A stretch of 64,000 bases of DNA from Mycobacterium phage prophiT36-1, in sequence record OQ417966.1, one strand, 5' to 3'. The notes beneath the pieces were generated by a model. It was not told where the DNA came from. It did not search any database and saw nothing but the letters and a program-made list of their open reading frames with translations. A program made the position numbers and the translations under genes. Shown here one piece after another: positions 19,683-55,494 of the stretch. Every line of letters begins with the position of its first letter. The first letter of the stretch is position 1.

Positions 19683-19718
19683 TTGTTGCTACAGAGTATA
19701 AATCAAGATCTGCCGGAC

Positions 19719-19976
19719 TCAGTGGTCGGCGAAGAAGTCGCCCGCTGAAGCATCCAACGCCTCCGCAATGTCGACGAGGCGTTCATACAGAAGTCCCCGG
19801 CGGCCGTGCTCGACGTCAATGAGTACGTTGCGAGTCACACCCGACGCCAACGCGAGCGCCTCTTGAGTCAGGCCCCGCGCAAGACGCAACGCGCGGATGC
19901 GGGCGCCGACCGCCTGCCGAGTATGTTCCCAGGCAATCACACGCTCGGGATCGTTCTGCTGAGGGCGGGTAGGCAT
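19719..19976 (-). CDS. XRE-family (Cro/CI-type) HTH transcriptional regulator
   Basis: 85 aa. LRLARGLTQEALALASGVTRNVLIDVEHGRR is a canonical XRE HTH. Divergent from the downstream plus-strand genes. Confidence 0.75.
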   Translation of the reverse strand: MPTRPQQNDPERVIAWEHTRQAVGARIRALRLARGLTQEALALASGVTRNVLIDVEHGRRGLLYERLVDIAEALDASAGDFFADH

Positions 19977-19986
19977 TAACCCAGTT

Positions 19987-20727: not shown

Positions 20728-21084
20728 AAGCGCAGGGCGTTTTACTGCTCCTTCACGAGCGCACGGGCAGGAGTCACAACGATTCCGTCAGCCAATCGGA
20801 CCGCGAGTGGGCTACGCCACGTAGAGCGAAGATCATTTACACAGATTGGGCATCTAAGTCTTTGCCCTGCGATGAAATGCTCGTTGTTTCGGACGACGCG
20901 CACCCATGACGGAAGCTGCCGACAGGATGCCTACCCTTGGCCGAACGAAACATTGAGGCAGTCCTGCAAGCGCAGCGAGGACGGTCGGCGGGCCTCCAGT
21001 GTGCGGGCAGGACATCACGGTGATCTTGCGGGCTGTTGGGCTGGCCCGCTCTGCCTCGACGGCCCGTAAGGGCACGTAATTCGT

Positions 21085-22857: not shown

Positions 22858-23227
22858 ACTCGCCGCAGGACCCGGGAACGGCCGACCTCCGCTAAGCCTG
22901 CCTGCCCAGTGCATCGGTGGGTCGGTAGTGGTTTGGGACTGTGTCTGATTGCCAGCCATTCGGATTGGGCGAGCTATGCCTGACAGTTCGCACCTGACTC
23001 TCGCTGTCAGTTGTCGCCCACATACCGCTCCAACGCTATCCAGACTGGTCCTGGCACTTCCGAAGTAGCGACGTACTGTGATCTTTCAGTTCAGAACAGT
23101 GTTTACGCGGGGGTCCTTCGCGGCAGCTCCTCGCAAAGTCGGCGGCCGGTAGATATTGTGTCGCACTGCGACAACAATCAGATTCAGATCCCACCGTCTA
23201 CCTGTCGCGTCTAACTGAGGGGGTTCC

Positions 23228-25033
23228 ATGACGGCTGAGCCAGCACCGCTCGGCGAAGGCATCGCCGAGCACTTCGGGTTTGCTATTGCGGGGGTCAGAG
23301 TCGGTGATGGTGAGATGCTCGACTTGCCTGGAGCGGGGAGCGTCATAGCTGTTGTGGGGGCGAACAATGCCGGAAAGTCCACGTTCCTACGTCAATTGCA
23401 GGAGATCTTGGCGTGGCACGGACTCACCAAGGAAATGACGCCCCGCGTTGTTACGGAAATCGCGGAGCCATGGGTTGGTTCGGTCGAAGATTTCACCGCG
23501 TGGCTGATCGCTAACGCCCAGATTGACGAGCACACGGGTCTAAGGAATGTGACCCGCAACGGCACTCACCCGCAAATACCGTTGCAGAACACTGCCTCGA
23601 TCCGGAACCAACCCACACCTGGCGCTGTCCTGCACTGGTTTGTCGGCAATCATCAGCCAGGCGACCGGCAACACGCCTGTTCGATGTCAGGTAGAGCTGA
23701 CCCGGCAGGATTACCCCCACAGACACCCATGCAGGCCCTGTTCGCAGACATACCGAAACGCAAAAAGGTGATTGACCTCGCTGCCCGCTTGTTCGGCGTT
23801 CAACTGCACTTCGATACCGTCAGTGCGTCTATCGGCTTCCGTATCGGCAAACCCGACTTGCCGGCGCCAAACGTTAACGAGATAGACGCTCAGTATGCTC
23901 GCGCGGTTGGAAAACTGCCACCTCTGATCGAACAAGGTGACGGCATCAAGTCAGCGCTCGGCCTCTTGATCCCTCTGATTACCAACGCGAACCCGCTGTC
24001 GATCGTGGACGAACCCGAGGCCTTCCTCCACCCACCGCAGGCAGAGCTTCTCGGCTTCGAGATAGGGAAAATTGCTCGGGACAACAGATCCCAGGTTGTC
24101 CTCGCGACTCACGACAAGAATCTTCTGCAGGGGATCGCGAGGAGTGGAGCCCCCGTATCGATTATTCACTTACAGCGAGCTGGAGACACCACGACGGCTA
24201 TTCGTCTCGGGGCCGAAGATATCGAAGACCTCTGGAAAGATGTGACCCTTCGGTATGGCAATGCGCTCGACAGCCTATTTCATCGCGCGGTCGTCATCAC
24301 CGAAGGTGATCGGGATTCGCACTTTTTTCGTGCGGCGATTGATGCGGTTCATGAGGGCATACACCCGCAGCCTCCCGCACACAACCTGATGTTTCTAAGC
24401 AGCTATGGCAAGCAGAACATGGCGCACATCGTCGAACGTCTTCGAAAGCTGGGCGTACGGGTCGTCACATCTCCCGACCTCGACATTCTCAACAACGAAA
24501 CGCTGCTGCGCCGGCTCGTTGTTGCCCACGGCGGCGACTGGAACTCGATCATGCAGCTTTACAAGCAGGCAACGAACGAATTCCTCGGTCCTGCAAAGCC
24601 TCCCACGATCGACGACGTACGCACAAAGATTGATGACGCCCTGAGTAAATCGACCGATGGCGTCTTGGACAGGCCTTTAGCTCAGGCGCTAGCTGTGGCC
24701 GTTGCGCTCCCAACAACAAACTGGGGCAAGCTAAAAGAGGCCGGCACCCGGGCATTTAATGCAGACAAGAAATCGGCGACTGAACTTCTGGATGCTCTGG
24801 ACGCGATCGGCATCGTTGCCGTCAAGGTCGGGGAGCTGGAAAAGTTTGTAACAAACGCTAACCCGCCAAAAGGCCCCGAGTTCCTCCCTGTCGCCTTCGC
24901 TGCGGGAGCGCACATCGCGCCGGAGGCAGGGGAACATGCAAATCGGCTATTGATAGCAGCCGGAATCACGGTTCCAGAGACGCGCCCTGTTCACGATCAA
25001 TGCTTGCCCGCATGCGCCCAGACCTCAGGCTGA
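23228..25033 (+). CDS. OLD-family ATP-dependent nuclease (N-terminal ABC ATPase plus C-terminal TOPRIM), class-1-like
   Basis: Walker A GANNAGKST. Walker B LSIVDEPEAFLHP. H-loop VLATHD. TOPRIM glutamate VVITEGDRD and DxD motif VTSPDLDIL. GAGGGGG RBS before the ATG. 601 aa, similar in size to P2 Old. Confidence 0.8.
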   Translation: MTAEPAPLGEGIAEHFGFAIAGVRVGDGEMLDLPGAGSVIAVVGANNAGKSTFLRQLQEILAWHGLTKEMTPRVVTEIAEPWVGSVEDFTAWLIANAQIDEHTGLRNVTRNGTHPQIPLQNTASIRNQPTPGAVLHWFVGNHQPGDRQHACSMSGRADPAGLPPQTPMQALFADIPKRKKVIDLAARLFGVQLHFDTVSASIGFRIGKPDLPAPNVNEIDAQYARAVGKLPPLIEQGDGIKSALGLLIPLITNANPLSIVDEPEAFLHPPQAELLGFEIGKIARDNRSQVVLATHDKNLLQGIARSGAPVSIIHLQRAGDTTTAIRLGAEDIEDLWKDVTLRYGNALDSLFHRAVVITEGDRDSHFFRAAIDAVHEGIHPQPPAHNLMFLSSYGKQNMAHIVERLRKLGVRVVTSPDLDILNNETLLRRLVVAHGGDWNSIMQLYKQATNEFLGPAKPPTIDDVRTKIDDALSKSTDGVLDRPLAQALAVAVALPTTNWGKLKEAGTRAFNADKKSATELLDALDAIGIVAVKVGELEKFVTNANPPKGPEFLPVAFAAGAHIAPEAGEHANRLLIAAGITVPETRPVHDQCLPACAQTSG

Positions 25034-25452
25034 TACGACCGCGACGCCGGCTACTGACCTTGCGGACGTGCTCAATACAAGTGCTCAGTTGCGCGCGGAG
25101 CTAATCTGCAGTTGGGTCAGGTATGTACTCGATTGTCGCTTATGGTGGTTGGCGAGTGGTATTGAATCGTGGGGGACAGGGTTATCTTTAGGCATGTACT
25201 TGTCGGTGTATATGGCTGGTGCTAACGGATTTCAGCGCTGTGAATGTTTTATTCGGCCGAGCATCTCAGCCTTCGGGGCAAGCGATCAGTTTCTCCACGG
25301 CTGCTGGTCGAACCTCGACATGGATTCGTCTGAGGCCTGCAACAGGTGGCACTAACCCGACCTCTATCCATGCGGATACTTAATCGACATCCGCGAGAGC
25401 GGCACCCTGTTCGCGCGACCCCAACTGGCGTTCCTACCCAGCTACGGGCATA

Positions 25453-26247
25453 TTGCTGCCAAATCTGTTGGTAAACACCAGTTTACGGCTTTCGCCGTAT
25501 ACACCAATTCTCGTGCGAAGAGACGCATCTGAAGCGCTCCCAGCCTCTCCGGTCGCAGGAAAGAAAATACTCTGGCCGATACGTGGTTCGATTATGCCCA
25601 TGCATGGTTTCCCTTTGGCCCCAGGCTCTTTGGGCTACAAGCGCTGCCACCTCACCGTCGGGGGAGAGTTTCGACTGTCACAGACTGATTGTTGCGATGC
25701 CGGCCAAGACGAGTTGTTCGGCGTCCTCGACGACCGATCAGCTGTGGTGTTCATCCACCCAAACGCGCTTCCCGCTGCGCCACCTGACGGCGTACCGCCG
25801 TTCGCGGTCGACTTCCTGCTGGACACCACTCGCGCGGCCTACCTGTTAGTGCATAACGGCATTCGTGCGCGGTTTCCGAATACCCATTTCATACTCAGCC
25901 ACGGCGGGGGCTTCGTGCCTTACGCCTCCCACCGGATGGCATTCTCGCTCGAATTGGAAACCGGTAACCCCGCTGAGGAGATGCTGGCATTGTTGTCGAG
26001 CTTCTATTTCGACACGGCCGTGACGTCCAGCCCTGCATCCTTGCCGAGCCTGCTGGCCTTCGCCGACTCCGGCCATGTCGTCTACGGATCGGATTGGCCC
26101 TTCCTACCTGCCGACGCCGCTAGGAGGTTCACCGGTAATCTGGGTCGTTACCTTGGATTAGATGATCGGGCCCGCGCCGCAATCGATCGCGGCAACGCCG
26201 AAAAGATCTGGGGAACACCGCCGCCAACCCGTGACGAGGTCGGCTAG
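25453..26247 (+). pseudogene. amidohydrolase-2 (TIM-barrel metal-dependent hydrolase) gene remnant, N-terminally truncated
   Basis: C-terminal amidohydrolase_2-like motifs (VVFIHPN, FILSHGGGFVPY, VVYGSDWPF). The N-terminal HxH metal-binding region is absent and the start is TTG. Preceded by a lower-GC non-coding stretch. Confidence 0.45.
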
Positions 26248-26820
26248 TCGGCGGGCAGGCGCTGTGGCCGACAAGGATCGGGCCAACAAGCAACCGCCAA
26301 CATCAGGGCGCTCTCAGAGTATCGCGATCGCGCCATCCACCTGTACAACGCCCAGGGTCTTGGCGCGCGTTCGTGCTGGTCGTAGCTTCCGTCGGGATGG
26401 ATGAGAGGTCAGGCGCACCCCAAGCCGATCAGCACTCGATTGCCGTTGTTCGCCGGTATTCTGGGGTAGGTTGCGGCGTCCGTATTCCGTCTGGCTGATT
26501 CATGAAAACCCGCTTGCTTGCATCAGGTTTTGAAGATTGAGACGAACCGCCGAGGGACCGAGCAGAGGCTGCTGAACTACTAGGTGCTGCCCCCCGGTGA
26601 ATTCGCCCGTCGACCGGTTGACTGTCAGCGCCCGGTGCGCCTTCCCCGAGCAATAGACATCCAGAGCAGCGGAGCCGAGTTAGCGCTTGTAGTGGCAAGC
26701 AATTACCCCTTCAGAATCGAACTCTGAGCGAGCTATGTTTGCGAGCCAGCACCGAACGCCGCTCGACCGCGATCGGCACATAGTGCCCGGCCATCGGCCG
26801 GGCTGCGAGATGATTGATCT

Positions 26821-27171
26821 ATGCGGTACATCAAGCGAACCAACACTGTGGAACTGACGGCTCGAAACGTCACCGCGCTGCTCGCCAAGCTCGACGACAG
26901 ACTTTCCGCTCGTACACTGATTTCACCTGACGACGACTTCGTCGTGCGAGCCATAGAGAACAACGTCAGCCTCGACAGTGCCGAGCCGCCAAAGGCGGTC
27001 CCTGTCCATACAACGGTGACGCTTACCCGCGACGACCTGTGGTACCTGACCACGCCGGGCGCGACGCTTACCCACGGCGCATTTACGTTGCGGTCTGTTA
27101 CGGACGAAGCGCACTACAGCGATCGCGCCCCTGGAGCTGTCTACATGCCCGAGTCCGGGGTTCAGTGGTAG
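26821..27171 (+). CDS. hypothetical small protein
   Basis: 116-aa ORF with an ATG start, within a long intergenic-looking region. No motif recognised. Confidence 0.4.
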   Translation: MRYIKRTNTVELTARNVTALLAKLDDRLSARTLISPDDDFVVRAIENNVSLDSAEPPKAVPVHTTVTLTRDDLWYLTTPGATLTHGAFTLRSVTDEAHYSDRAPGAVYMPESGVQW

Positions 27172-27324
27172 CAAATACCGTATGACGACGACCGTCCCAC
27201 GAGCTCCGGAAGGGCACTCCCCTCCCGCCGCGAGGCTGCGAGCAGCCGCACCATACATCGCGGGTGTTGACCAAACCAGTTGGTGAACTCGAGCTAGTAG
27301 CAACCCAGGTCCCGACAGACGATC

Positions 27325-28929
27325 GTGCTGTCGGCGCCAGCAGGCACACTGAGTGTCGTGGGCACAGATCTGGAGGTCTATAGGCGCGGGGCCCCATGGA
27401 CACCGCAAGAGATCACTGAGCTCATCGAGCGCATCCGCGCAGGGTCAGGCCGCACCGACATCGCGCGCACCCATGGCCGCACACCCGGGGCCCTCGACGC
27501 GGTAGCCTGGCGCCTCCTGTCAGCAGACCACAGACCTGAAAAGAAGACCCGCCAGGCAGTGGAGTTGCTACGTGCCGAGATCAACGACATCTCCGCAGGG
27601 GCAGAGACGGATTGGTGGGCGCGCTATCTCCAAGGCCGCAAGATAGCCAACGCCGCGAAACCCGCAAGAACCAGGTCTCCCCAGGCGCCCAAAACGACTG
27701 CGACACCGAAAACCCCCAAACCGCTTCTGCCACTACCGGAGTGTGTGCAAACGTTCGCCGAGCAGCCAGCAATTGACTGGACGCAGCCAGGGACGGAAAG
27801 CGAACTTGGCCTACTGATCGTTCAAGTCGTCAACGAGATCGTGGACCCACGGAACCGATACATCATGGCCCGGCGACTCGGATTGATCGACGGATCAAAT
27901 ACTTTGGAATCCATCGGCGAAACACTGAACCTAACCCGCGAACGGGTCCGCCAACTACAAAACACCGCGATCACACAGGTCCAGCACGACGCACACCGCC
28001 TCGGATCGGCCGCCGCAACGCTCGCAGTGGTCTTCAACTTCCTCGATAAGGACCCCACCGCAATCGAGGCACTGGCCCAATCCTTGTTGACCGCCGCACA
28101 AGAGCTATTCAGCTGCCAACCGACCTGGCTTATCAAATCCGTCAGCCGCATGGGCGGGCGCACACCACGACAGGCTGACGAGATCGCCGCGGCAGCTGCG
28201 GCGATCCGTGACGCCGAACGTCGGCGCGGACGCGAACTTGCCCATGAACAACGGCAGATCCTCACCTGCGATCGCATCGTCGACAAATGGATTCACGCAG
28301 CCACCTGGCCCCCGCACCTGAAACACGCCGATTCCGAGCGCAGCACACAACGGCGCCGAATGCCAACGCCCTCAGGAATTGCCTCCGTCGGCTCTTTCGA
28401 TTCCGAAAAGAACGGCACCGTTGTCCATTTCGAATCCCTACTTGAAGAATCCGTGTTCATCACCGCCGAAGGCAGCGACAAGATCCTCACCTATCAAGAG
28501 CAGCCCTGCCAGATCGCATACATCGGGGAGGACGGGCAATCACACACGTACTACCCTGACCTACTCCTGACGCTCAACGATGGCCGCATGCTGCTAGCCG
28601 AGGTCAAGCCACTTTGGCAGATGGCATTGACCACTAATCGCATCAAATGCGAAGCAGCGCAACGCTATGCGGCACAAACTGGATGGGGATGGGTATCGGT
28701 TGGCTCCAGCGGCCAAGCCTACCGAGACCTTGAACAACGAGATATCAGTGACTTGACGCGCGCATCGCTTACCGCGGCGCTCAACGAAGGCCCGGTGTCC
28801 TGGGCGCACTTGCAGGAGCTACGAACTCAGGCGCCAATCACAGCGATGGACGTCGCGGCATTCGCCGTGCAAGAAAACATAGGGCTTGAACTGTTTCCAT
28901 ATCGCCTGTACCACGTCAACGACGTGTGA
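27325..28929 (+). CDS. sigma-70 region-4-like HTH fused to a C-terminal PD-(D/E)xK (restriction-endonuclease/TnsA-like) domain
   Basis: LESIGETLNLTRERVRQLQNTAITQV resembles the sigma70 r4 HTH. The C-terminus has YYPDLLLTLNDGRMLLAEVKP, a classic D...E-V-K motif. GTG start, so the start is uncertain. Confidence 0.6.
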   Translation: MLSAPAGTLSVVGTDLEVYRRGAPWTPQEITELIERIRAGSGRTDIARTHGRTPGALDAVAWRLLSADHRPEKKTRQAVELLRAEINDISAGAETDWWARYLQGRKIANAAKPARTRSPQAPKTTATPKTPKPLLPLPECVQTFAEQPAIDWTQPGTESELGLLIVQVVNEIVDPRNRYIMARRLGLIDGSNTLESIGETLNLTRERVRQLQNTAITQVQHDAHRLGSAAATLAVVFNFLDKDPTAIEALAQSLLTAAQELFSCQPTWLIKSVSRMGGRTPRQADEIAAAAAAIRDAERRRGRELAHEQRQILTCDRIVDKWIHAATWPPHLKHADSERSTQRRRMPTPSGIASVGSFDSEKNGTVVHFESLLEESVFITAEGSDKILTYQEQPCQIAYIGEDGQSHTYYPDLLLTLNDGRMLLAEVKPLWQMALTTNRIKCEAAQRYAAQTGWGWVSVGSSGQAYRDLEQRDISDLTRASLTAALNEGPVSWAHLQELRTQAPITAMDVAAFAVQENIGLELFPYRLYHVNDV

Positions 28930-29325
28930 CCGACGTTCGCCGTCAACCGTTGCGGGAATGCGCCCCGTGAGATGAGTATTCGCCCATCGGCGGCCGCCCA
29001 TGGGCACTCGTATGGATACATACACGATGGGTACTCACCCAAACAGGTACCCAGCTGCGCGGGCGACGCGAGCCGGCGTGCCATCTCGGATTCCTAGCTA
29101 ATCCAATGCTTGGGCTGTTTCTGCGCACATGTCACACATATACTGATCGCCACGTAGCTGCAGGTTACGCATCGGTTCGGTACTAAGCCCGCCTGTGACG
29201 CTCGATATAGCAAACATAGAGATCTCGCAGACGCCTGGACATAACCCAGTTTATTCTGTCATGATTCTCGCATCAGCTGCACCCACACGCGGTGTACAGC
29301 AAGTATCGGGAGGGGCAAGCTGCGC

Positions 29326-30513
29326 ATGATTATGAGTGATCTTTGGCGCATGTCGACGGGTTTGCGTAGAGCTTCGGCGGTGGTCGCCGGTGTGGCGCTA
29401 GCCTTCGGTGGAGCGAAGGTGACCAGCGACCACACCGTGCCTGGCAGCGGGTTTTCGACACTCCAGACAGCCGCTGCGGATCCGACCGGTCCCACGGGTG
29501 GCCCTGGCGGGGGGCCGGGTGGGATGAATGGATCCCAGTTCCAGCCCCCAGGCTTGCCGCCGCAGATGCCTGACTATCAGGGCGGTATCAACCAGCCGCC
29601 GTTAGATCAGAATTCTGGTATCAGCATCTACAACACGGGATCGCCAGGAGCACAGCAAGTTCCATCGCAGCAAGGTGCACAACAGTCTCAACAGGGGCAG
29701 CAGCCTGCGCACGGAACCCAAATCCCTGATTATCAAACAGCAACCCCATACACTCAGGGTCCCGGTACGGAGAATCCGGATTACCAAGCACCACAACAGA
29801 ATTCTCCCCAGCAGGACCATCAGCAAAATAATGCTCCCACGCAGACTCAGCAGCCCAGTCAAAAAGACCAGCAGGACCGCGAACTGCAACAGCAATGTCA
29901 GCAACAGGCTCAGTATTACGGTCTTGCTGAACAGATGGCCAGCTTTATCGCGTCGGCAATGGGTGGTGCCGGGAGCCTCTTCGGGCAACCCAGTCGCCAG
30001 TGGGGGCCTGCCTTTGAATGCAGTTGCGCACCTGAGCAGGGTGGCCCCCATAAGCAATCACCTGGCGACGATGAAACAAGTCAGCCGTGCGTACCAACCG
30101 ATGGCATTCCAAAAAGGATCGTGGGCGCGGATTACACCTACAATTTGGCCACACAACAACTATCCTGGTTAGGCACTTTCCCAGGTTTGATGCCGTTCTC
30201 GGGAACCGTAAGTGTGGCTCCCGGCGCCTCAGTTTTCATACCGGGCAACGCCCAATGGACAAGCGCGACTTTGACAATCTGCCAAGCGCCCTCCGAAGGC
30301 CCTAGCGGTCGCAATCCAGCGCAAGATAAGCTCCTAACCAAGGGAGACATCAAGAAGTTGGAGGACGCCGGATTTGACGTTCACGAGCTTAAAGGCGGTA
30401 AGAACGCCTCGAAGTTCGATCTGTACAAGGACCGAGAGGGAAATATCTACGTGAAGCCAAAAGGCGGGCGTGGCGAGGGCGATCCGCTAGGGATAAATAT
30501 CAATGACATCTGA
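29326..30513 (+). CDS. secreted Pro/Gln-rich protein with a distinct C-terminal domain (polymorphic-toxin-like architecture)
   Basis: Strong RBS (GGGAGGGG). N-terminal signal-like segment (RRASAVVAGVALAFGGA). Long PDYQ/Q-rich low-complexity linker. C-terminal roughly 150-aa globular region ending FDLYKDREGNIYVKPKGGRGEGDPLG. Confidence 0.6.
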   Translation: MIMSDLWRMSTGLRRASAVVAGVALAFGGAKVTSDHTVPGSGFSTLQTAAADPTGPTGGPGGGPGGMNGSQFQPPGLPPQMPDYQGGINQPPLDQNSGISIYNTGSPGAQQVPSQQGAQQSQQGQQPAHGTQIPDYQTATPYTQGPGTENPDYQAPQQNSPQQDHQQNNAPTQTQQPSQKDQQDRELQQQCQQQAQYYGLAEQMASFIASAMGGAGSLFGQPSRQWGPAFECSCAPEQGGPHKQSPGDDETSQPCVPTDGIPKRIVGADYTYNLATQQLSWLGTFPGLMPFSGTVSVAPGASVFIPGNAQWTSATLTICQAPSEGPSGRNPAQDKLLTKGDIKKLEDAGFDVHELKGGKNASKFDLYKDREGNIYVKPKGGRGEGDPLGININDI

Positions 30514-30913
30514 GCTCGATCCTTCCAGTATTCCCGTTATCAGAACGCTGCTGAACATTACGGGCTTGTTTGACCCCGACACATTTACAGCTGCAGTTTT
30601 ACTGACGCCAACACGGACTGTGCGTGCAGGAGAAGCGCGCTCTCCACAACTCGCCTTCACTGAAGACGCCTGGAAAATTGACCTCGGCAAGCACGAGGCC
30701 GTCCACTTAGAGAGCGAAATGGATCGGCTACTCGCCCTGCTTTTACCAGTGGGTGAGAGATTCCGCGAAACTGTGGCAGCGATGGGCCTCAGCGCCGAAG
30801 TAGCATTTCAGTGCAGTGCGGACGCGGGATACTATCCTTCAATATCTTTGCGCCATGACCAGATAAAGCAGCTAGCTGCCCTTGGGCTTTCGCTCGATAT
30901 TGACATTATCTAG
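30503..30913 (+). CDS. small protein translationally coupled to the secreted protein (putative immunity/partner)
   Basis: ATG at 30503 overlaps the upstream stop by 11 nt. 136 aa, acidic, no signal peptide. Confidence 0.45.
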   Translation: MTSELDPSSIPVIRTLLNITGLFDPDTFTAAVLLTPTRTVRAGEARSPQLAFTEDAWKIDLGKHEAVHLESEMDRLLALLLPVGERFRETVAAMGLSAEVAFQCSADAGYYPSISLRHDQIKQLAALGLSLDIDII

Positions 30914-30963
30914 ATAGCAGACCGGAATTACGGCTGCTACCGATTATATTCATTCGAGGGGAT

Positions 30964-31530
30964 ATGAAGATTCGAATTCTCGTAATTGCGGCGTGTGCCG
31001 TAGCCTTAACGGCGTGTGGGCAATTAGAAAAACCAACACCTGCCGATCCTGCATCGCCGTCAACTCGTGAGTCGACGGACTTCAATAACATCCCCGGACA
31101 GTTCCCTTCGCCGGCGACACTGACCACGAACGGGCAGGCTGAAGCGCCAGTCGGAGGCTGCGTGAATCTGAGCGGACCCGCAGTCAACGCCTTACTCACA
31201 CTCGTTGATTGTGGCTCGCCACAACATACGTACCGGATCGTGCAGCGCGTCAACGTTCCCCAGGAATGCGGTGATATTGACCGTTCGTACTACCACAATT
31301 CCCAGGCCACTGGCCAGTACACCGCGTGCCTCGACTTAGCCTGGGATGCCAGCGCCTGCATCAGCCTGGCCCAGCCTGTAGCGAAAGTCTCCTGCACCGA
31401 TCCGAACGCGCCCCGCAAGATCAAACCAACAAAGATTGTCCTCGATTCAACGACCCTCGATAGCTGCCCTGACGGAGGATATCCGCACCCGGTACGCAAA
31501 TTCACCGTCTGTACCGAAACCCAGGACTAA
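30964..31530 (+). CDS. lipoprotein (Cys-rich C-terminus)
   Basis: GAGGGG RBS. Signal peptide with lipobox LTAC|G. Six further Cys. A diverged copy of its C-terminus lies at 32385-32492. Confidence 0.6.
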   Translation: MKIRILVIAACAVALTACGQLEKPTPADPASPSTRESTDFNNIPGQFPSPATLTTNGQAEAPVGGCVNLSGPAVNALLTLVDCGSPQHTYRIVQRVNVPQECGDIDRSYYHNSQATGQYTACLDLAWDASACISLAQPVAKVSCTDPNAPRKIKPTKIVLDSTTLDSCPDGGYPHPVRKFTVCTETQD

Positions 31531-31746
31531 GCGGTGGTGTCCTGGGGCGTCCAGGCGCAGGTGGATGCGGTAGTTCGCTTTCGTTGAGGCGCTGTGCGCC
31601 TGGTTGTCGTAGAGGTTGTGGCCGATGCTGCGGACGGCGTGTGTTCTGGTGATCAAGCCCAGAGCACGTAGTAACCGGAGGTAGTGCGGCGCCGATGATT
31701 GCTCCGTGCCTACAGCTTCTGCGAGGTCACTGACCGGGTGCGGCAA
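31447..31746 (-). CDS. possible winged-helix regulator (uncertain)
   Basis: 99-aa minus-strand ORF with a helix-turn-helix-like segment (HYLRLLRALGLITRTHAVRS). Overlaps the lipoprotein gene's 3' end by 84 nt, so it may be spurious. Confidence 0.25.
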   Translation of the reverse strand: MPHPVSDLAEAVGTEQSSAPHYLRLLRALGLITRTHAVRSIGHNLYDNQAHSASTKANYRIHLRLDAPGHHRLVLGFGTDGEFAYRVRISSVRAAIEGR

Positions 31747-31863
31747 GCCGTATGGGGCGAGTCGGGGAGCGGCACATTCAGCGGTACGGACAAATCTCTC
31801 GGCGGCGTGATCGGCATATTCGAGTGGTAACTCCGGTGACGGCTGGTTGCTGCGATTGGCTTG

Positions 31864-32385
31864 ATGGGTTTGCCCTGGGCGGCTAGTTTGTTGGGAATGT
31901 CAGGTTGGTGGGGCCGGTGGAGGTCCGCAGGTCGGGCCTCGGTAAGTAGTCAGCACACGGTGGTTGTTGATGCGGTCGAACACGTATTGGCTGGAGTTTC
32001 CGTATCAGATTGCTCGGTACCTGCGTTGGCGCAGCAGTGGGTGCAGGGCGAGGGGCGGGAGTTGGTGATCGAGGATGTGGTGTTGCCTGCGGGGGTGTTC
32101 GGACGTTGGCTCTCGGTGCCGGGGCAAGACATTGTCCAGGTGGGTGCCGGCGTTGTCGGCCGTGACCGCACGATCGCTCATGAGTTGGGGCACATGGTGT
32201 TGGGGCATCGGGGCCGCCCAGTTACTGAGTATGTCGAGGGATTGGTGCAGGCCGCTTCTGCGGATCTGATTACGCACATGTTGCAGCGGGCGTGCACAGA
32301 GGAGCCGGGGCAGCAAGAGGCGGCCGGATGGCGGCAGGACGAGTTGGCGGAGCATGCGACGACGCTAGCGCGCCTAATCGATTGA
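31864..32385 (+). CDS. ImmA/IrrE-family HExxH zinc metallopeptidase-like protein
   Basis: TIAHELGHMVLGH (HExxH) preceded by a Gly/Val-rich segment, as in ImmA/IrrE anti-repressor proteases. ATG at 31864. The track ORF begins with TTG at 31861. Confidence 0.55.
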   Translation: MGLPWAASLLGMSGWWGRWRSAGRASVSSQHTVVVDAVEHVLAGVSVSDCSVPALAQQWVQGEGRELVIEDVVLPAGVFGRWLSVPGQDIVQVGAGVVGRDRTIAHELGHMVLGHRGRPVTEYVEGLVQAASADLITHMLQRACTEEPGQQEAAGWRQDELAEHATTLARLID

Positions 32386-32492: not shown

Positions 32493-32668
32493 ACGCATGC
32501 GGCCGACAGCCGGGAGGTTTGGCCGGGATCGAGTACCGCACCTCGAGTGCATGTCTGACGGACGTGGGATCCAGGTGACAATGGCATTCGAGGCCACAGT
32601 GGAGCGGTAGACGGTCACGAGCTTTTTCGGGGTTGGCCGAGGGGGCTCCATGATCGCTGCACGGATTC

Positions 32669-32716
32669 CGTCTCAACATGTCTGTAGAGACAGCTTGACG
32701 TCCGTACATAACGCGG
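32669..32716. repeat. right-end motif of the element: CGTCTCAACA...TGTCTGTAGAGACA...CATAACGCGGGG
   Basis: Inverted match to the left-end motifs. Also carries an internal palindrome TGTCT-gtag-AGACA. Confidence 0.5.
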
Positions 32717-32752
32717 GGGGTTATGTTCTGTTGAGACGTTTGTCTTGGAGGT

Positions 32753-34147
32753 ATGTCGATGAGCGATCGAGCGTATCGGGTTGTTTACGGAGCTTACGCT
32801 GGGCTTGACGCAGCCGAGGTGCAGTTTCCCGGTGTGACCCGATGCCTTCCATCTGTGGAGCAGCAGTTCGGGGATGGGTTTCCTGTGCTTGTTGATGCCG
32901 ATGGTTTGCCGGTGGAGGAATCGTTGGCGTTTCTAGTATCGCGGGTAGGGGCATCGACCTCAACATTGGCGCAGTACGCACGCGCTTTGATGGGGTTTGT
33001 CGAATTCCTGGGCTACCGGGGGGACGCCCGGCTTTTAGATGCGGCGCCCCGTGACTTGACGGCGTACCGGTTGTACCGAACGAGGACGGGGGAATCTCCT
33101 GTCTCGGAATACTCGTTCCGGGTGGAAGCCTCGGCACTGCGACAGTTCTATGCGTGGGCAGTTGAGACTGGCCTCCTGGAGCGCTCTCCTGTCAAGCAGT
33201 TGTCACGCAATGGCTGGGACAACCTTTCTACCAACAGAATGCGTCATTCTAAGATTCGTCATGTAGATAAGTTTCTGTACGAAGCACTGCTGCGAGCGGC
33301 TGCTCAGGGCAGCGTGGATGCGGGCGTTCGGAGTGCTTCGCTACGGAATGTGGCTGCAATCAAGACATTTGCAACGACTGGGCTTCGCCTTGGTGAGCTT
33401 GCGAGCCTTCTGACCTTCGATATTGATCATGCTGTCAGATTGCGCCGGGCGCTATCTGTGGAGATGGAGTCGATCACAAAGTACCGAGTCAACCGCAATG
33501 CGTTGATTCCGTTCTATGCCACAGACGCGATCCGGCGGTATCGAAAACTTGAGCGCCCTAACGTGGTGGTTCGGCATCAGCGCGCGTTGGGCAAACGTCT
33601 GGACAGTCTTTTTGTGATCAGCGATTTCAATGAATCCACTCGCCGTGTCTCCGGCCGGTGGCGAGGTCGACGGCACCAGTATCTGCTGCATTTGGTGCCT
33701 GTTGAGCTGCGGTTGAAGGCTGTTTCAGTTAATTCAAATGGCAGCGTGGAGCCGCTGTGTTTGTTCTTGAGCGATAGCCGAGGGCAAGGGATGACGAGGT
33801 CTGGGTGGGAAGGAGTGTTCTCCGAGGTCAGTGATCAGATGATGCGCCAGGATCCGACGGATGGGCGGATCCGGAAGGTCACCCCGCATGATCTGCGGCA
33901 TACGTTCGCTATCAATTATTTGAGGGCGGCCCATGGGGAACGGGCCAAAGTGCTCCAGGAGACACCGTTCAAGGATGGGCCGCCGCTGCGTGATCCGTTG
34001 ATCGATCTTCAAGAGCTGTTGGGACATGCGACCGCAGCACAAACGATGCGTTACTTGAGGTATGTCGAGGACATCGACCGACTCATTGCGTCGGCTGTTC
34101 CCGGCCAGGGTGATGCGGGAGGGGGCGAGCATGCCCCGCAGAAATGA
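32753..34147 (+). CDS. tyrosine recombinase, first of trio (copy 2)
   Basis: Identical 464-aa translation to 9985-11379. Confidence 0.85.
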   Translation: MSMSDRAYRVVYGAYAGLDAAEVQFPGVTRCLPSVEQQFGDGFPVLVDADGLPVEESLAFLVSRVGASTSTLAQYARALMGFVEFLGYRGDARLLDAAPRDLTAYRLYRTRTGESPVSEYSFRVEASALRQFYAWAVETGLLERSPVKQLSRNGWDNLSTNRMRHSKIRHVDKFLYEALLRAAAQGSVDAGVRSASLRNVAAIKTFATTGLRLGELASLLTFDIDHAVRLRRALSVEMESITKYRVNRNALIPFYATDAIRRYRKLERPNVVVRHQRALGKRLDSLFVISDFNESTRRVSGRWRGRRHQYLLHLVPVELRLKAVSVNSNGSVEPLCLFLSDSRGQGMTRSGWEGVFSEVSDQMMRQDPTDGRIRKVTPHDLRHTFAINYLRAAHGERAKVLQETPFKDGPPLRDPLIDLQELLGHATAAQTMRYLRYVEDIDRLIASAVPGQGDAGGGEHAPQK

Positions 34148-36035
34148 ACGCAAGGACCTCGACCGTGAGGGTGTTGACGTTGCGCGAGGCGCCGCCGAAT
34201 CTCGGCCAGCTGCGGTGGGAGTTCGCAGGCTCGCTCAACCGGGCAGGCCCGGCATGCAGGGGACCGCACAGATAGATCCCAGCTCATACCAATGCCGCCG
34301 TCTGGCGGCCCAGCTGGCCGACCAGTGGGTTGAGATGGCGGCTGGGCGTTCGCGCTCGGTGATCGCCGTTCACCGTCAGGCGCTTGATAATTTCCTGAAA
34401 TATGTTGATAAGTTGCATGATTCAGATGTGAGCCTGGATCATGATCCCGCGGTAGTAATGGCGGTGTTTGATGCATGGGCCAAGGATCTGATTGCACTGT
34501 ATGACGAAAATTCGATCATGCCGTACCGGATGTCGAACATCGTCCAGACACAGATGGCTGGTGCTGTTGTCGATGGGGTGATCACCGACGAGGTGTTGGC
34601 AGCATATGCGCGTGGGCCCGCGGTAGTCCCGAAACCGCGAGCACAACCGCTCGACGAGTTCAGTAAAGACGAACTCAAGCGCATGGTGCTGGCTGCGCGC
34701 GCACATATACGAGCAGCTCGAAAGATCAGGGAATGGGCCACGAAAACTATCCGTGCGTACGAATCTGGGAAATTGACCCACGCGGATCAACGCTGTCTGG
34801 GCCACATGCTGCAGATGGCTACCCGAGGCGAGCGCATCGCCATACAACAGCCGTGGGATGCACATCCGGAGTCGCTGCGCGATCTCTTCCCCGACGAGGC
34901 CTGGTCGCTTTATCAGGCAACAGGCCTGAACGAGACGAAGAATTCAGTTGCCTTGTCCTGCTACCGCGCGACCCTCGCCCGGCCAATCGACCTGGTTCCT
35001 TATCGGGTATTGCTTATGGCAGGCACAGGCGTTGCAGTGGAAGAGATCTCGGCATTGACTGTGTCAGATATCGAATGGCTCGAAGATGGCGTCAGAGTGC
35101 AGATGACCAAATCGCGAGCCCGGCGGTCAAAAGGACGGTACTTCCCAGGATCCGCTGAGCGCGGTGGCTGGGATGTTCCCGCGCTTTTGCAGTCGCTGCT
35201 GGATTTCACTGAACCGGTCCGCGCGATCGCAGGTGCACAGTTCCAGGACTGCCTGTGGCTATCGTTCAAGACAAAAAGACAGTCCCACAGTGAATCTGGT
35301 TGCGCCCCGGCTCCCGCAGACTTCGGAACCGCCAACTTGGCATCCTGGATCGATTCGGTCAAGACAGTCCACGACATGGGCGATATTTCCACCCCACATG
35401 ACATGCGGCGGATACGTAAGACAAAGGTCGCCCAGCGTGCAATTGATCTGCGTGGCGCAATGGCCGACATCGCTGGCGATGACCACACCAGCAGAGTCTT
35501 CTTCCAGCATTACGGACAGACAACATCGCTGAAAGTGTATTCAGGATCGGTAATTTCGGGCTTCCAAACCTCACTCGCTGAGGCAGTAAAGACAGGCTTC
35601 ACTGCCTTCCTGGACAGACGTGCTGCGGTACCGGCGTCGATCTTGACCGAGGCGCTGCCCATCGAGCCCGCTCAGGCACACAGTCTGCGCTCCGGTGCTC
35701 ACGACATGGGAGTTGTCGACTGCCAGAACCCGTTTAACTCGCCCTTTACCAAACAAGGCAAGTTATGTGGGTCCGCGCCCTTATCATGTCTGATGTGCGA
35801 GAACGCGGTTGTCTTCACCGACCATCTCCCCAACATCGTGGCGCTTATACAAGCAATGGACAACGCGAAGCGGTCACTGGCACCCGATGACTGGATTGCC
35901 ACCTGGGGGCGGCAATACGCTGCGGCGCAGGCATTGATGTCATCGGTGCCCGAACGAGCTCGCGCCGCCGCGGCGCGCAAGGCCGCTGCCGCGGTAACAG
36001 ATCTGCCGGCCTGGTTGGGGCCGGGTAACCAGTGA
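34131..36035 (+). CDS. tyrosine recombinase-like, second of trio (copy 2)
   Basis: Identical to 11363-13267. Confidence 0.65.
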   Translation: MPRRNERKDLDREGVDVARGAAESRPAAVGVRRLAQPGRPGMQGTAQIDPSSYQCRRLAAQLADQWVEMAAGRSRSVIAVHRQALDNFLKYVDKLHDSDVSLDHDPAVVMAVFDAWAKDLIALYDENSIMPYRMSNIVQTQMAGAVVDGVITDEVLAAYARGPAVVPKPRAQPLDEFSKDELKRMVLAARAHIRAARKIREWATKTIRAYESGKLTHADQRCLGHMLQMATRGERIAIQQPWDAHPESLRDLFPDEAWSLYQATGLNETKNSVALSCYRATLARPIDLVPYRVLLMAGTGVAVEEISALTVSDIEWLEDGVRVQMTKSRARRSKGRYFPGSAERGGWDVPALLQSLLDFTEPVRAIAGAQFQDCLWLSFKTKRQSHSESGCAPAPADFGTANLASWIDSVKTVHDMGDISTPHDMRRIRKTKVAQRAIDLRGAMADIAGDDHTSRVFFQHYGQTTSLKVYSGSVISGFQTSLAEAVKTGFTAFLDRRAAVPASILTEALPIEPAQAHSLRSGAHDMGVVDCQNPFNSPFTKQGKLCGSAPLSCLMCENAVVFTDHLPNIVALIQAMDNAKRSLAPDDWIATWGRQYAAAQALMSSVPERARAAAARKAAAAVTDLPAWLGPGNQ

Positions 36036-38518
36036 AGACAGCACAGCTCGGTTCCCCAGGGCCAGTCGCGGCACCGGTTTCGTCCGACATCTTCGCCGAC
36101 ACCGAAGATGTATTCCTGTCCCGCCCGGACAGGATCGCTGGCGCCCCCGCATGCCTGTTTAGCGAGCAGGTATGGGATGCGACGGGTGTGCTGCCTCGGC
36201 GCGCTAACATCGGCCGCCATCAATTGCGCATAATCTTTCCGCAGCATCCGGCGTGGTCGCTGCGGTCTCGTGAGATTGCGATGACCTTGCTTAACAGCAC
36301 CGACCCACGGTTGCTCGCACGATCGGTCTCCTTCGGCAGCCGTACGTTCTCCCTGGCGCATGTGCGATCGCGCTGCGAGACATACAAAACCGTGGCGGCG
36401 TGGCAGACAGCTCAAGGCTTACCTGACGACATTTCGGCCTGGGGCGCCCGCGACTGGGTAGCGATGGTCGAAGCCGAAATCGCCAGGGGCGTCAAAAACG
36501 GGACCGTGCGCAATCTCATCTGCGCTATCCGCGACCTTGTCTTCCTTGGGCCCATCTTGACTGGCGGCGGCATCGCATCAGACCCATGGAACGGCAAGGC
36601 AACGAAACTCATCGCCAAAGGCGCCGTGGCAGGACGAACTGAAGTAATCGCCCCGGCACGTTGGATACCGCTGATAGGTGCGTGCTGGACATACATCGAC
36701 ACCTTCGCCGAAGACATCCTGAGTCTGCGTGTGAGCCATCAGTGTGACCTGCGCCCCGGCATGCCGGAATGGAGGCGCCGCTCGGAAGTAAGCGATGACG
36801 AGCTGCTCACCGCATACCTGGAGTCCTCCGGTGCCGTTATTCCCGCTAAGACTCGTGACGGTGGCCCGGACCCGAGCTGGTGGCGCCTATCCAAATTGGT
36901 AACCGCCGACCGGTCTTCGGCAATCTTCAAAGAAGACAGGGCAGCGGGGCGCCGCCGCAGAGAGATGGTGTATCAGGCGCTCGCCAACAACGTGGCCCGT
37001 TATGTAGCCCTCACTGCCAGTGAATTCGAAAATCTTTTGGCACAAGGGATTTCCAAGAAACTCGCGGGCAGCGATGCCGAGACCATAGTACGGATCCAGG
37101 GCGCCGACGAGATGCTCGATGCGTGGATTGACGCTGCCAGCAACCGAGTCGCAGTCACGTCCACAGAACTATGCAGCTCGCCGGGAAAGATCGCTGAAGA
37201 CGACATCAATTGGGCATTGATGGAACGGATCGTGTTCCGTTCAGAAGGCGTGACTGGCCTGCTCGGGAAGGGCTGGGCAACCTCTGTCCGCCGCAGGCGC
37301 AAACTACTTAAACTCGCCCGCTCAGGCCGAGTTTTCGCATCCGCCAGTGGTGTCGGTGTGATGGGCGTACCGCGCGACTGCACTGGCTTCACCCTAGTCG
37401 GCGCACCAGGCAGGCAGATCCCTTGGCGGGAATCAATGTCGGACTATGAGGCGCGGTGCGAACTGCGCGCCTTGCGGGCATCCTGCTATGTCTTCATCGC
37501 CGCGATAACAATGATGCGCGACAGTGAGATTCAAGATATGAAGCGAGGCTGTATACGTACCGATTACGGCGTCGCTTCTGTGAAATCACACCTTTACAAG
37601 GGGCGTTCGGGCAAGACGGTCGCACACTGGTGGATCATCGATGAAGTAGCCACAGCAATCAGAGTGCTGGAACGACTCAGCTGTCATCCAGAGTATCTGT
37701 TCGCACGATTCGTCGACGGAGAACTCGAGAATCCTGAACCCGGTATCAGGTCAGGACTCGAGATTGCGTTTCTGCTCGATCATTTGGCGGCCACCGGCGC
37801 CCGAAGCGGGATCGCACCGGTGCCCGAGGGGCCCGTGATTTCCGCGCGAGCTCTGCGCCGTACCACTGCATCCATCAGCCGCGAACTGGGAGGCAACGAG
37901 CTTGCGGTAAGTCATCAACTCAAACACGCCATCAACTACGGCTACTCGAACGTTACCAGCGCCTATATGGCACCAGACCCGGCATGGGCAGACCTGCTCA
38001 ACACCAACAGGTCCGAGGACAACCTTGAGCACATGGTGACCGTCGTGCAGCAGTCCGCGCGCACCAGCGCCTCCTTGGCCGGTCGCGGCGGTGAGCGGCT
38101 GACCCAACAGATTGCCCAAGCGGTCGAACAGAGCGCAGGCCCTGGATACCCCGGTTCGGTGCTCTCCGATGAGGAGCTAGCCATCCTGCTGAGAAAAATC
38201 GCGCCGCAGATCCGTTTCGGACCTGCCAACGCGTGTCTGTACGACGAAGAGAACGCGCTATGTCGGCGCGATGCCACCACCGAAATCCAGGGGCCGCTTC
38301 TGGGACTGTGTCAACCGTCGCGCTGCGCAAACTCGGTGATCGGTACCGAACACATGCCTGTGTGGGTCACCGAGTTGCAGACATTGCAGAAGACCATCGC
38401 CAGCCCCCGCGTGAGTCCGCCTCGACGACAGGCACTTTCAGAACGAATCACCGACGTACAGCACGTACTGAGCCAGCTCCAAACACGACCGCAAGCGGGC
38501 GACCATGGGCAGCCGTGA
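36032..38518 (+). CDS. large tyrosine recombinase-like, third of trio (copy 2)
   Basis: Identical to 13264-15750. Confidence 0.6.
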   Translation: MKTAQLGSPGPVAAPVSSDIFADTEDVFLSRPDRIAGAPACLFSEQVWDATGVLPRRANIGRHQLRIIFPQHPAWSLRSREIAMTLLNSTDPRLLARSVSFGSRTFSLAHVRSRCETYKTVAAWQTAQGLPDDISAWGARDWVAMVEAEIARGVKNGTVRNLICAIRDLVFLGPILTGGGIASDPWNGKATKLIAKGAVAGRTEVIAPARWIPLIGACWTYIDTFAEDILSLRVSHQCDLRPGMPEWRRRSEVSDDELLTAYLESSGAVIPAKTRDGGPDPSWWRLSKLVTADRSSAIFKEDRAAGRRRREMVYQALANNVARYVALTASEFENLLAQGISKKLAGSDAETIVRIQGADEMLDAWIDAASNRVAVTSTELCSSPGKIAEDDINWALMERIVFRSEGVTGLLGKGWATSVRRRRKLLKLARSGRVFASASGVGVMGVPRDCTGFTLVGAPGRQIPWRESMSDYEARCELRALRASCYVFIAAITMMRDSEIQDMKRGCIRTDYGVASVKSHLYKGRSGKTVAHWWIIDEVATAIRVLERLSCHPEYLFARFVDGELENPEPGIRSGLEIAFLLDHLAATGARSGIAPVPEGPVISARALRRTTASISRELGGNELAVSHQLKHAINYGYSNVTSAYMAPDPAWADLLNTNRSEDNLEHMVTVVQQSARTSASLAGRGGERLTQQIAQAVEQSAGPGYPGSVLSDEELAILLRKIAPQIRFGPANACLYDEENALCRRDATTEIQGPLLGLCQPSRCANSVIGTEHMPVWVTELQTLQKTIASPRVSPPRRQALSERITDVQHVLSQLQTRPQAGDHGQP

Positions 38519-38903
38519 GGAAATCCGTGCCGCGATGGAACGCCTCCTAAACGGCGACGCCCAGCACACCGACGGACGCCTAACCAAAACCAACCTTGCG
38601 GTAGAAGCCGGCGTGGGTCGGGCGACCCTCTACCGCCAGCACGACCTGATGGCCGAATGGGCGCGCCGCGTCACCGAATCAGACATCGCCCCACCCGCCG
38701 CGTCTGCCGCGGCCACGATCGCACACCTGACCCGACAGCTGGCCGACGAACGCTCCCGCCGCCGCGAATCCGACCGCATCGCCAACGGCCTGGCCTTCGT
38801 GGTAGCCGAGCTCTACCGCGCGCTAGAGGCTCGGACTCCCCCAAATTCTTCACGCGGCACGATCATCCCGATAAACGCCAAAACGCGAAGGCGCGCAGAC
38901 TAG
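38505..38903 (+). CDS. small HTH protein (copy 2)
   Basis: Identical to 15737-16135. Confidence 0.5.
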   Translation: MGSREEIRAAMERLLNGDAQHTDGRLTKTNLAVEAGVGRATLYRQHDLMAEWARRVTESDIAPPAASAAATIAHLTRQLADERSRRRESDRIANGLAFVVAELYRALEARTPPNSSRGTIIPINAKTRRRAD

Positions 38904-55260: not shown

Positions 55261-55494
55261 ACGCATGCGGCCGACAGCCGGGAGGTTTGGCCGGGATCGA
55301 GTACCGCACCTCGAGTGCATGTCTGACGGACGTGGGATCCAGGTGACAATGGCATTCGAGGCCACAGTGGAGCGGTAGACGGTCACGAGCTTTTTCGGGG
55401 TTGGCCGAGGGGGCTCCATGATCGCTGCACGGATTCCGTCTCAACATGTCTGTAGAGACAGCTTGACGTCCGTACATAACGCGGGGAAGTACGG

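Follow-up and report, generated by a model that had tools for sequence, protein, structure and literature searches.

What is the large insertion in prophiT36-1, where does it begin and end, and how did it come to lie there as two copies? This prophage of Mycobacterium abscessus T36, analysed here as a window of 64,000 nt, was described by Amarh et al. as carrying a "peculiar" large insertion with three tyrosine-integrase-like genes (PMC9934374); the related strains T38 and T48 carry the prophage without the insertion (PMC9934374), and its ends, target, donor and element class were left undefined in the original description (PMC9934374). The presence of the insertion is therefore known; its exact ends, a six-nucleotide footprint, a target in the Walker A codons of a tadA gene, and the mechanistic class, together with the likely donor, are the details added here. 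Self-comparison of the window gave an exact tandem repeat (9949–32718 equals 32717–55486; period 22,768; zero mismatches), in which two head-to-tail copies of a 22,759-bp element (copy 1, 9953–32711; copy 2, 32721–55479, 100% identical to copy 1) are joined by nine bases; all features described below are on the plus strand. The reading that we favor, with a probability of about 0.8, is that a site-specific element moved by tyrosine recombinases across a 6-nt spacer passed, as a dimer, from a chromosomal tadA site into a look-alike site in the prophage.

Ends of the element and its target sites

The left flank of the insertion (8900–9948) is 100% identical to Mycobacterium phage prophiT48-1 and 97–98% identical to other cluster MabL prophages of M. 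abscessus, which provide empty sites for comparison. The empty site of prophiT48-1 reads GATATCGG TAGGGG GAAGTACGG (ATCGG TAGGGG GAAGT around the insertion point) and contains a run of five G; in three other MabL prophages the site contains TAAGGGG. In prophiT36-1, the 6-mer TAGGGG is retained as target (prophage) DNA at the left attachment site, attL (9947–9952), while the right attachment site, attR (55480–55485), holds the 6-mer CGCGGG, and the first base after it, G55486, resumes the prophage sequence GAAGTACGG. The insertion adds the element plus 6 nt and no target duplication, and single insertions at two sites agree on this count. Comparison with empty sites in related prophages, which the sequence-only reading had proposed, thus gave an exact insertion point without duplicated bases. 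That reading had placed a G-run on either side of the element (left, ggta|GGGG, 9945–9952; right, GGGG|aagt, 55483–55490) and had taken this run as the coupling unit. The runs are where it put them; the unit is instead the 6-mer, as the left GGGG is part of the TAGGGG already present in the prophage (the G5 run of prophiT48-1) and, in the right GGGG, three G come from the imported CGCGGG and the fourth from the target. The insertion interrupts gene 81, a small prophage gene (9810–10040, from the prophiT48-1 annotation and the list of open reading frames, ORFs), of which the last codons are replaced, so that the frame reads into the element and stops at 10040; the downstream prophage side of the interruption is window 55486–55779. 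Despite the insertion in gene 81, attP from prophiT36-1 has been detected in culture supernatants (PMC9934374).

The attR 6-mer is identical to the 6-mer that flanks all chromosomal copies of the element. The first recombinase of the element is on record in 830 assembly blocks, and in all M. abscessus genomes sampled (>14 chromosomal copies), the element occupies a single position, always in the same orientation, within a gene encoding a T2SSE-family (tadA/cpaF-like) ATPase. The chromosomal left junction reads ...GGCACGGG CGCGGG|TTATGTTCTG and the right junction ...GTACATAA|CGCGGG CAAGACCACG; because both junctions are found on one contig about 22,760 bp apart, the chromosomal copy there is single. 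When the two flanks are joined through a single CGCGGG, a 386-aa ORF encoding the Walker A sequence VTGGTGAGKTTLL (GGTGAGKTT) reappears, and retaining both 6-mers would put Ala-Gly into the P-loop of the tadA product. The primary site is thus, as judged from these junctions, the Walker A codons (GGC GCG GGC AAG) of the tadA/cpaF-like pilus ATPase gene. This gene, which adjoins T2SSF/TadB-C-like genes, is split by the element in every sampled carrier genome, and carriage should leave the pilus/secretion ATPase inactive for as long as the element stays in place. The tadA 3′ fragment that lies downstream of the element has itself been shortened in many M. abscessus genomes (e.g., locus L014, 11236–20426) and is followed by ApeA-HEPN, a helix-turn-helix (HTH) gene, an M78 peptidase gene and a different integrase pair (401 and 743 aa); the genes beyond the truncated fragment look as if another element, unrelated to the first, had been stacked there.

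Relatives of the element, with proteins (recombinases) 55–64% identical to those encoded here, were found in M. abscessus subsp. bolletii, M. llatzerense and on a plasmid of M. lentiflavum. The bolletii and llatzerense modules start with the same TTATGTT at the same codon position of tadA (in llatzerense, GGA GCC GG|TTATGTT). The M. lentiflavum plasmid element (NZ_CP092424.2, about 79.0–116.3 kb; 37,269 bp) also starts with TTATGTT; its last 25 nt match the right end of the abscessus element at 24 of 25 positions and stop at ACATAA, and its flanking 6-mers are unequal, with TACTGG on the left (attL) and TGCCGG on the right (attR). Right ends were compared among relatives with the M. lentiflavum element, since those of bolletii and llatzerense lie beyond the 10-kb flanks. 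The tadA-type 6-mers CGCGGG, AGCCGG and TGCCGG share the form N-GC-N-GG of the codons GGN GCN GGN and differ only at the two wobble positions, and the 19 element bases that precede them are identical between species; because of this combination, the 6-mers must be host-derived rather than element DNA. The TGCCGG on the right of the M. lentiflavum element accordingly looks like a footprint left when the element sat, at an earlier time, in a tadA gene whose codons were GGT GCC GGC. When the sites themselves are aligned, the prophage site matches the tadA site at 11 of 27 positions, with GG-NNN-GGG-N-AAG common to both, and the M. lentiflavum site matches it at 15 of 27; both look like secondary sites resembling the primary one. 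The target 6-mer stands at attL and the imported 6-mer at attR in both informative cases (prophage and M. lentiflavum plasmid), which, at 2/2, is weak evidence for a rule. A rule of this type, with a 6-bp spacer or footprint, has been published for the element families SEs, GInts and Tn554 relatives (PMC10214605, PMC9345347, PMC5385486, PMC12486829; bioRxiv 10.1101/2022.09.22.508988); in SEs, the target 6 bp stay at attL and the 6 bp from the left flank of the donor are deposited at attR (PMC10214605, PMC9345347; bioRxiv 10.1101/2022.09.22.508988). The proposal in the sequence-only reading of a tyrosine-recombinase-type movement with short, flank-derived coupling bases is borne out by the 6-mers at attL and attR and by the lack of target duplication. 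Such a footprint can be read as a travel record that traces transfers among chromosome, plasmid and prophage in a clinically important species.

Taken from these comparisons, the true ends of the element are TTATGT and ACATAA, on which empty sites, chromosomal copies and relatives, three independent comparisons, agree. Ends at these positions had been proposed from the window sequence, and they recur in the empty sites of sister prophages, in the >14 chromosomal copies and in the three relatives (the left end in each, the right end in the M. lentiflavum element); ends elsewhere in related genomes would have been a counter-case, and the related genomes show the same ends. The left-end site (9953–9984), as aligned among four left ends of the family, reads TTATGTT-N4-TGAGAC-N3-TGTCT-TGGAGG and contains TGTTGAGACG at 9961–9970; at the start of copy 2, TTATGT (including TTATG) lies at 32721–32726 and TGTTGAGACG at 32729–32738. 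The right-end site of copy 1 (32669–32711), the end that is 24/25 identical in M. lentiflavum, consists of CGTCTCAACA (32669–32678), the palindrome TGTCTGTAGAGACA (32679–32692) and then GAGACAGCTTGACGTCCGTACATAA, which brings the site to ACATAA (including CATAA) at 32706–32711. The inverted pairs TTATG/CATAA and TGTTGAGACG/CGTCTCAACA noticed earlier are all located where they had been placed, with a gap from CGTCTCAACA to CATAA of 28 nt rather than 30 nt. A perfect inverted repeat of at least 10 nt between two random 60-nt windows of the element has a probability of 0.0024, and the 6-nt inverted repeat TTATGT/ACATAA coincides exactly with the ends set independently by the empty-site comparison; by this measure, the inverted end motifs exceed chance expectation. 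Conservation across the relatives extends only to the terminal TTATGT(T)/ACATAA, the left TGAGAC...TGTCT and the right GAGACA-N-CTTGACGTCCGTACATAA; CGTCTCAACA, the right arm of the 10-nt repeat, and the palindrome TGTCTGTAGAGACA were not found in the M. lentiflavum relative. The last 50 nt of the element have a GC content of 48%, as compared to 59% overall.

Recombination module, cargo and relatives

Each copy opens with four co-oriented genes (A to D) that begin 38 nt from the left end, are kept in all relatives, and are followed by variable cargo (16 kb here). Gene A (9991–11379; copy 2, 32759–34147) encodes a canonical Xer-like tyrosine recombinase of 462 aa, comparable to IntA of SEs, with a Pfam Phage_integrase match (9e-12), a SAM-like domain and the invariant residues R210, K241, H377, R380, H423 and Y432. 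Gene B (11345–13267; copy 2, 34113–36035) encodes a Tfp-like protein of 640 aa with a recombinase fold that lacks the first catalytic Arg (TGVAVEE replaces TGxRxxE); no Tyr is invariant across the wider family, and its predicted structure, of low confidence (predicted local distance difference test, pLDDT, 64), has XerD and XerH as best fold matches. Gene C (13264–15750; copy 2, 36032–38518) encodes a large, divergent, IntB-like tyrosine recombinase of 828 aa with a Cys-rich tail and a weak Pfam match at residues 479–632; R496, K523, R609, H632 and Y645 are invariant among 16 homologues, reaching Dietzia and Streptomyces, and the predicted structure (pLDDT 74) best matches XerH, Tn1549 Int and Cre. 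Gene D (15737–16135; copy 2, 38505–38903), conserved in all relatives, encodes a small protein of 132 aa with an HTH-like N-terminus, comparable to Srap, GinD and TnpC. The Pfam integrase matches of A, B and C are strong, marginal, and weak but covering most of the catalytic domain, respectively; nothing informative came from NCBIfam searches, from PDB sequence searches or from comparing A, B and C with one another by hhalign.

The C-terminal parts of B and C have a Cys-rich motif in common, C...C...C..C.N[A/S]V (window 12860–13100 and 15380–15560), which is invariant in all homologues and may form a zinc-binding module peculiar to the large recombinase-like proteins of this family. Directly upstream of gene A, the inner motif of the left end (TGAGAC-N3-TGTCTTGGAGG, 9963–9984) recurs in front of the first recombinase gene in a four-gene module on Klebsiella pKPN-8c6e as GGGAGACATATATCTGTCTGGAGG (about 2165–2190 of the locus), and it is also found within the published primer for the SE-6283 intA knockout as GAGGGTTGTCTTGGAGG; its recurrence across phyla may reflect a conserved site for binding or regulation that overlaps the ribosome-binding site.

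The cargo of copy 1 (16197–32385), as identified by domain searches, encodes a helicase, an OLD-family nuclease, an amidohydrolase, a TnsA-N/sigma protein, and an Ntox33 toxin with DUF4279, and the stretch 16197–31530 (in copy 2, +22,768) resembles a defense and toxin island. The helicase is a 1161-aa ResIII/SNF2 protein with a PDC-S71-like C-terminus, the OLD-family ATPase/TOPRIM nuclease gene lies at 23228–25033 (PADLOC Old, 3e-19), and a 534-aa, MzaA-like protein combines TnsA-N with sigma-70 region 4. The Ntox33 toxin (29326–30513), which has a DUF4279 partner, is 395 aa long here and is called at only 107 aa in many other strains. No Xis-like, relaxase, or type IV secretion system (T4SS)/conjugation genes were present among the element ORFs. 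Genes for arsenic/heavy-metal resistance and for phosphate transport are found in the M. lentiflavum plasmid relative. The hosts of the family comprise Mycobacteroides, Mycolicibacterium and Mycobacterium, with more distant homologues of C in Dietzia and Streptomyces. The element DNA had no match in the phage collection, and no exact match was obtained for the ORF versions of 464 and 174 aa or for a 52-aa ORF that spans the junction of the two copies.

The nine-base joint and the movement of the pair

The spacer between the two copies, CGCGGGGGG (32712–32720), is 9 nt long and consists of the 6-mer CGCGGG plus three extra G (CGC plus six G). The attL, attR and attB comparisons predict 6 nt, i.e., ACATAA-CGCGGG-TTATGT or the same with TAGGGG, instead of the observed ACATAA-CGCGGGGGG-TTATGT, so that the six G are not the expected end-to-end joint of a circle that the sequence-only reading had seen in them. 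Two length-conserving insertions at the G5 site would leave 17 nt of flank and junction, as against 20 nt in the window. Second insertions beside a resident copy, offset by ±3 nt, and a sister exchange of attR with attL were tried and rejected, as neither yields G4/G6/G4 from a G5 site with length conserved; heteroduplex repair and microhomology-mediated duplication were rejected as well, as the excess of three G remains. The three extra G are unexplained and represent a genuine, if small, anomaly, and a concrete one, in the strand-exchange chemistry of a poorly understood class of elements. Formally, the joint equals the whole right 6-mer followed by GGG, the 3′ half of a left 6-mer (either CGCGGG or TAGGGG), and a bottom-strand exchange with attL nicked 3 nt inside the spacer would yield such a joint; secondary nicking sites have been documented for SE-6283 at about 1% (PMC10214605), and unexplained 2- and 6-nt changes have been reported for GInts (PMC5385486). 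Slippage in the G-run or a homopolymer error is also possible as the source of the extra G.

In the account that we favor, the element would start from the primary tadA Walker A site with CGCGGG on both sides, and a circular or copied-out form with CGCGGG between ACATAA and TTATGT would enter ATCGG-TAGGGG-GAAGT in the prophage, leaving the target 6-mer at attL and placing the imported 6-mer at attR without duplication. A dimer at tadA would recombine through its outer ends and be copied whole into the look-alike site, its 9-nt inner joint having arisen by an off-register strand exchange or a nick inside the GGG of the attL spacer. The whole dimer is most likely the transferred unit: because the authors who completed the T36 genome reported the duplication at two loci (PMC9934374), the second being a complete, identical dimer of 36 genes (T36_00429–00464; PMC9934374), the dimer probably moved as one. 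This second dimer presumably lies at tadA, because the chromosomal copies in two complete genomes sit at 0.46–0.55 Mb. The earlier suggestion that the junction predicts how the dimer formed is not supported, as the junction alone is silent on this point and, given the second dimer in T36 (PMC9934374), the dimer more likely pre-existed. With a spacer of 9 nt, the inner joint may be a poor substrate, and the pair would then stay together. An extension of this account, of low probability, is that the 9-nt joint is no accident but the signature of an off-register (secondary-site) exchange that makes a head-to-tail dimer with a disabled inner att site; the pair would then act as one 45.5-kb transposable unit, which would give SE-like elements a way to double their cargo. 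More radically, the lineage might normally copy out multimeric intermediates. In either case, SE-type strand-biased transposition would extend to Actinobacteria and to prophages.

A classical cut-and-paste element of the Tn916/conjugative transposon (CTn) or phage-integrase type, which would excise both strands, leave a heteroduplex overlap and an empty site, and involve no copy-out, appears unlikely. The flanking 6-mers do behave as coupling sequences, the predicted structure of C resembles Tn1549 Int among others, and some GInts restore attB (PMC5385486), all of which this explanation accommodates; it is less easily reconciled with the lack of Xis-like or conjugation genes among the element ORFs, with a four-gene module that matches SEs in content and order, with the coexistence of donor and new copies in T36 (PMC9934374), and with a placement of the target and imported 6-mers (at attL and attR, respectively) that follows the SE rule (2/2 cases, and weak as such).

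Still less probable is the model of the sequence-only reading, in which the element ends in ...CATAACGC, the six G are a normal circular joint with one GGG from each flank, and the dimer formed in the prophage from a circle. With ends at TTATG...CGC, each copy is formally flanked by GGG and the junction is GGG plus GGG, and a circle recombining with a resident copy would place its joint inside the dimer. However, the three bases after ACATAA follow host codons and vary only at the wobble position (CGC in abscessus, TGC in lentiflavum), which marks them as flank-derived; moreover, the single insertions at two sites add the element plus 6 nt rather than the element plus 3 plus 3, related systems take a 6–7-nt spacer from one flank (PMC10214605, PMC12486829), and the identical dimer is found elsewhere in T36 (PMC9934374).

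An assembly or sequencing artifact, such as a collapsed or expanded repeat, a mis-threaded free circle, or a homopolymer error that turned CGCGGG into CGCGGGGGG, is very improbable. Assembly is difficult for two 22.8-kb copies that are 100% identical and occur at two loci, some platforms are prone to errors in G homopolymers, and the three extra G match no conservative model, but the T36 genome was completed with the duplication reported at two loci (PMC9934374), the outer junctions are clean on both sides and follow the footprint rule, and a homopolymer error of +3 is atypical. A DDE or Tn7-like transposon with a 3-bp GGG target duplication and a TnsA-like protein in its transposase, as the TnsA N-terminal endonuclease domain of the 534-aa protein and the GGG that formally flanks TTATG...CGC on both sides might suggest, can be all but dismissed: there is no TnsB/DDE partner, the TnsA-like gene is cargo that is missing from relatives such as the lentiflavum and llatzerense elements, the module that is conserved is made up of recombinases, and the GGG duplication is rejected both by the wobble-position argument and by the lentiflavum flanks (TGG and CGG), which show no duplication.

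Several points weigh against the transfer of a dimer by SE-type recombination as favored here. The only joined form seen is 9 nt, three more than any length-conserving route from the G5 site allows, and no circular junction was found in public contigs: the right-end 18-mer had one chance match in GTDB genomes, in an unrelated metagenome-assembled genome, and a search of metagenome and viral contigs for GTCCGTACATAA-N5-10-TTATGTT returned 25 low-GC chance matches and no family junction. The chromosomal dimer of T36 is known here from the published report. The two 6-mers of the donor are identical, so that the flank that was carried along is indistinguishable, and strand bias and copy-out cannot be judged from the sequence. 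The direct protein similarity between the mycobacterial element and SEs is weak, with an E value of 3.7e-4 for Srap and D and a link between IntB and C only through intermediates; this and the other BLASTP values for the SE proteins were obtained with a small, 15-sequence database.

The element-bearing prophage is also a possible vehicle for transduction.

Comparison with known element families

RIT elements consist of three recombinases of 315–410 aa, all with the catalytic Tyr, between terminal inverted repeats of about 34 bp (PMC10214605, Table 1); membership was rejected, as the proteins found here have 462, 640 and 828 aa, B is degenerate, the terminal repeat is 6 nt, and a fourth gene and cargo are present. 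The conjugative transposons Tn916, Tn1549 and CTnDOT resemble the element in using a tyrosine recombinase, in tolerating a non-identical 6-nt overlap ("coupling sequences"), in a circular intermediate, which is presumed for the element here, and in making no duplication; however, they use a single Int with Xis and conjugation genes, a set of gene features that this element does not share, their coupling sequences come from either flank, and they leave an empty site behind. Membership in the Tn916 type was likewise rejected, as the element ORFs include no Xis, relaxase or T4SS gene. The likeness to conjugative transposons that had been suggested from the junction is therefore better replaced by one to SE-, GInt- and Tn554-type elements, which are the closest analogues.

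The Tn554 family (Tn554, Tn553/"Tn552-II", Tn558 and Tn6674) makes no target duplication, prefers one site and orientation, and carries the donor att to its right end, as does the mycobacterial element, and Tn554 relatives have been described as "bringing in" the donor att (PMC12486829). Both encode an ordinary and a large recombinase together with a small TnpC-like protein, where the likeness to TnpA, TnpB and TnpC is one of description; Tn554 differs in having no counterpart of gene B, in being much smaller, and in its occurrence in Firmicutes. Protein C matches a gene on Nocardioides pNOCA01, a plasmid that Van Houdt 2012 listed among actinobacterial Tn554-related pairs (PMC3414803); this is a match at the level of the plasmid.

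GInts, which have a ginABCD operon, a 6–7-nt staggered exchange and attI variants that acquire bases from the chromosome (PMC5385486), share with the element three integrase-like genes and, with them, a small gene at the 5′ end, variable cargo, a short 3′ end that is relatively rich in AT, site-specific insertion within conserved genes or at their ends, the staggered exchange and attI variants just mentioned, and occasional unexplained non-conservative products. They have not been reported in Actinobacteria, and the Pfam pattern of the E. coli Sakai GInt (ECs_3512–3509; integrase, integrase, none, none) differs from that of the element, in which the second protein is degenerate. For this GInt, the only one compared, no BLASTP match to ECs_3509–3512 was better than E = 0.05, and hhalign of C against GinC gave a probability of 0.5%.

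SEs have the core intA-tfp-intB-srap, 6 bp between the terminal motifs C and C′ in the circle, and a copy-out-like route (PMC10214605, PMC9345347; bioRxiv 10.1101/2022.09.22.508988), and so far they have been reported only in Gammaproteobacteria. Their differences from the mycobacterial element are its actinobacterial host, outside that range; its unrelated terminal sequences and proteins too diverged for direct BLASTP, except for Srap and D; its target in the tadA Walker A codons; and its occurrence here as a head-to-tail dimer with a 9-nt inner spacer, dimers or tandem copies receiving no mention in the SE papers searched. Strand bias and copy-out are features of SEs that the mycobacterial element may share; the one hint is that chromosomal and prophage copies coexist in T36 (PMC9934374). 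Homology of Tfp and Srap is the SE criterion of Idola 2023; Srap of the active SE on pAQU1 (SE-Pda04Ya311) matched the Nocardioides homologue at 1.6e-5 and D at 3.7e-4, while Tfp gave no significant BLASTP match to B. The intermediates lie in Klebsiella and Nocardioides: the pKPN-8c6e four-gene module, whose WP accessions were not found among the entries of the SE supplementary list or of the truncated GInt list, shows position-matched homology to A (2e-21), B (9e-8), C (5e-25) and D (2e-3), as does the pNOCA01 module to B (1e-9), C (3e-15) and D (3e-10), and SE-Pda04Ya311 matches the Klebsiella module through IntB (1e-7) and IntA (9e-6).

Beyond this distant, position-matched similarity of proteins, the element resembles SEs in the four-gene module at one end with the same functional order and catalytic pattern (as in SE-Pda04Ya311, with 545/614/671/161 aa: recombinase, degenerate recombinase-fold protein, large recombinase, small protein), in short, imperfect terminal inverted repeats, in a 6-nt spacer as expected from attL, attR and attB at two sites, though the sole joined form seen has 9 nt, in the target 6-mer kept at attL and the donor 6-mer left at attR as a footprint, in a strong site preference, and in the lack of mobilization genes. 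In gene order, catalytic pattern and footprint behavior, as read from the DNA, the element thus works like an SE, while its proteins place it in a distant actinobacterial lineage; on these grounds, it belongs to the SE/GInt/Tn554 kind of tyrosine-recombinase transposon, as a member that is actinobacterial, carried by a prophage and present as a dimer. SEs and GInts, the four-gene transposons of this kind described from Proteobacteria, therefore have mycobacterial relatives, which are common in M. abscessus (with the recombinase in the 830 assembly blocks noted above), normally split the Tad-pilus ATPase gene, and carry defense and toxin genes.

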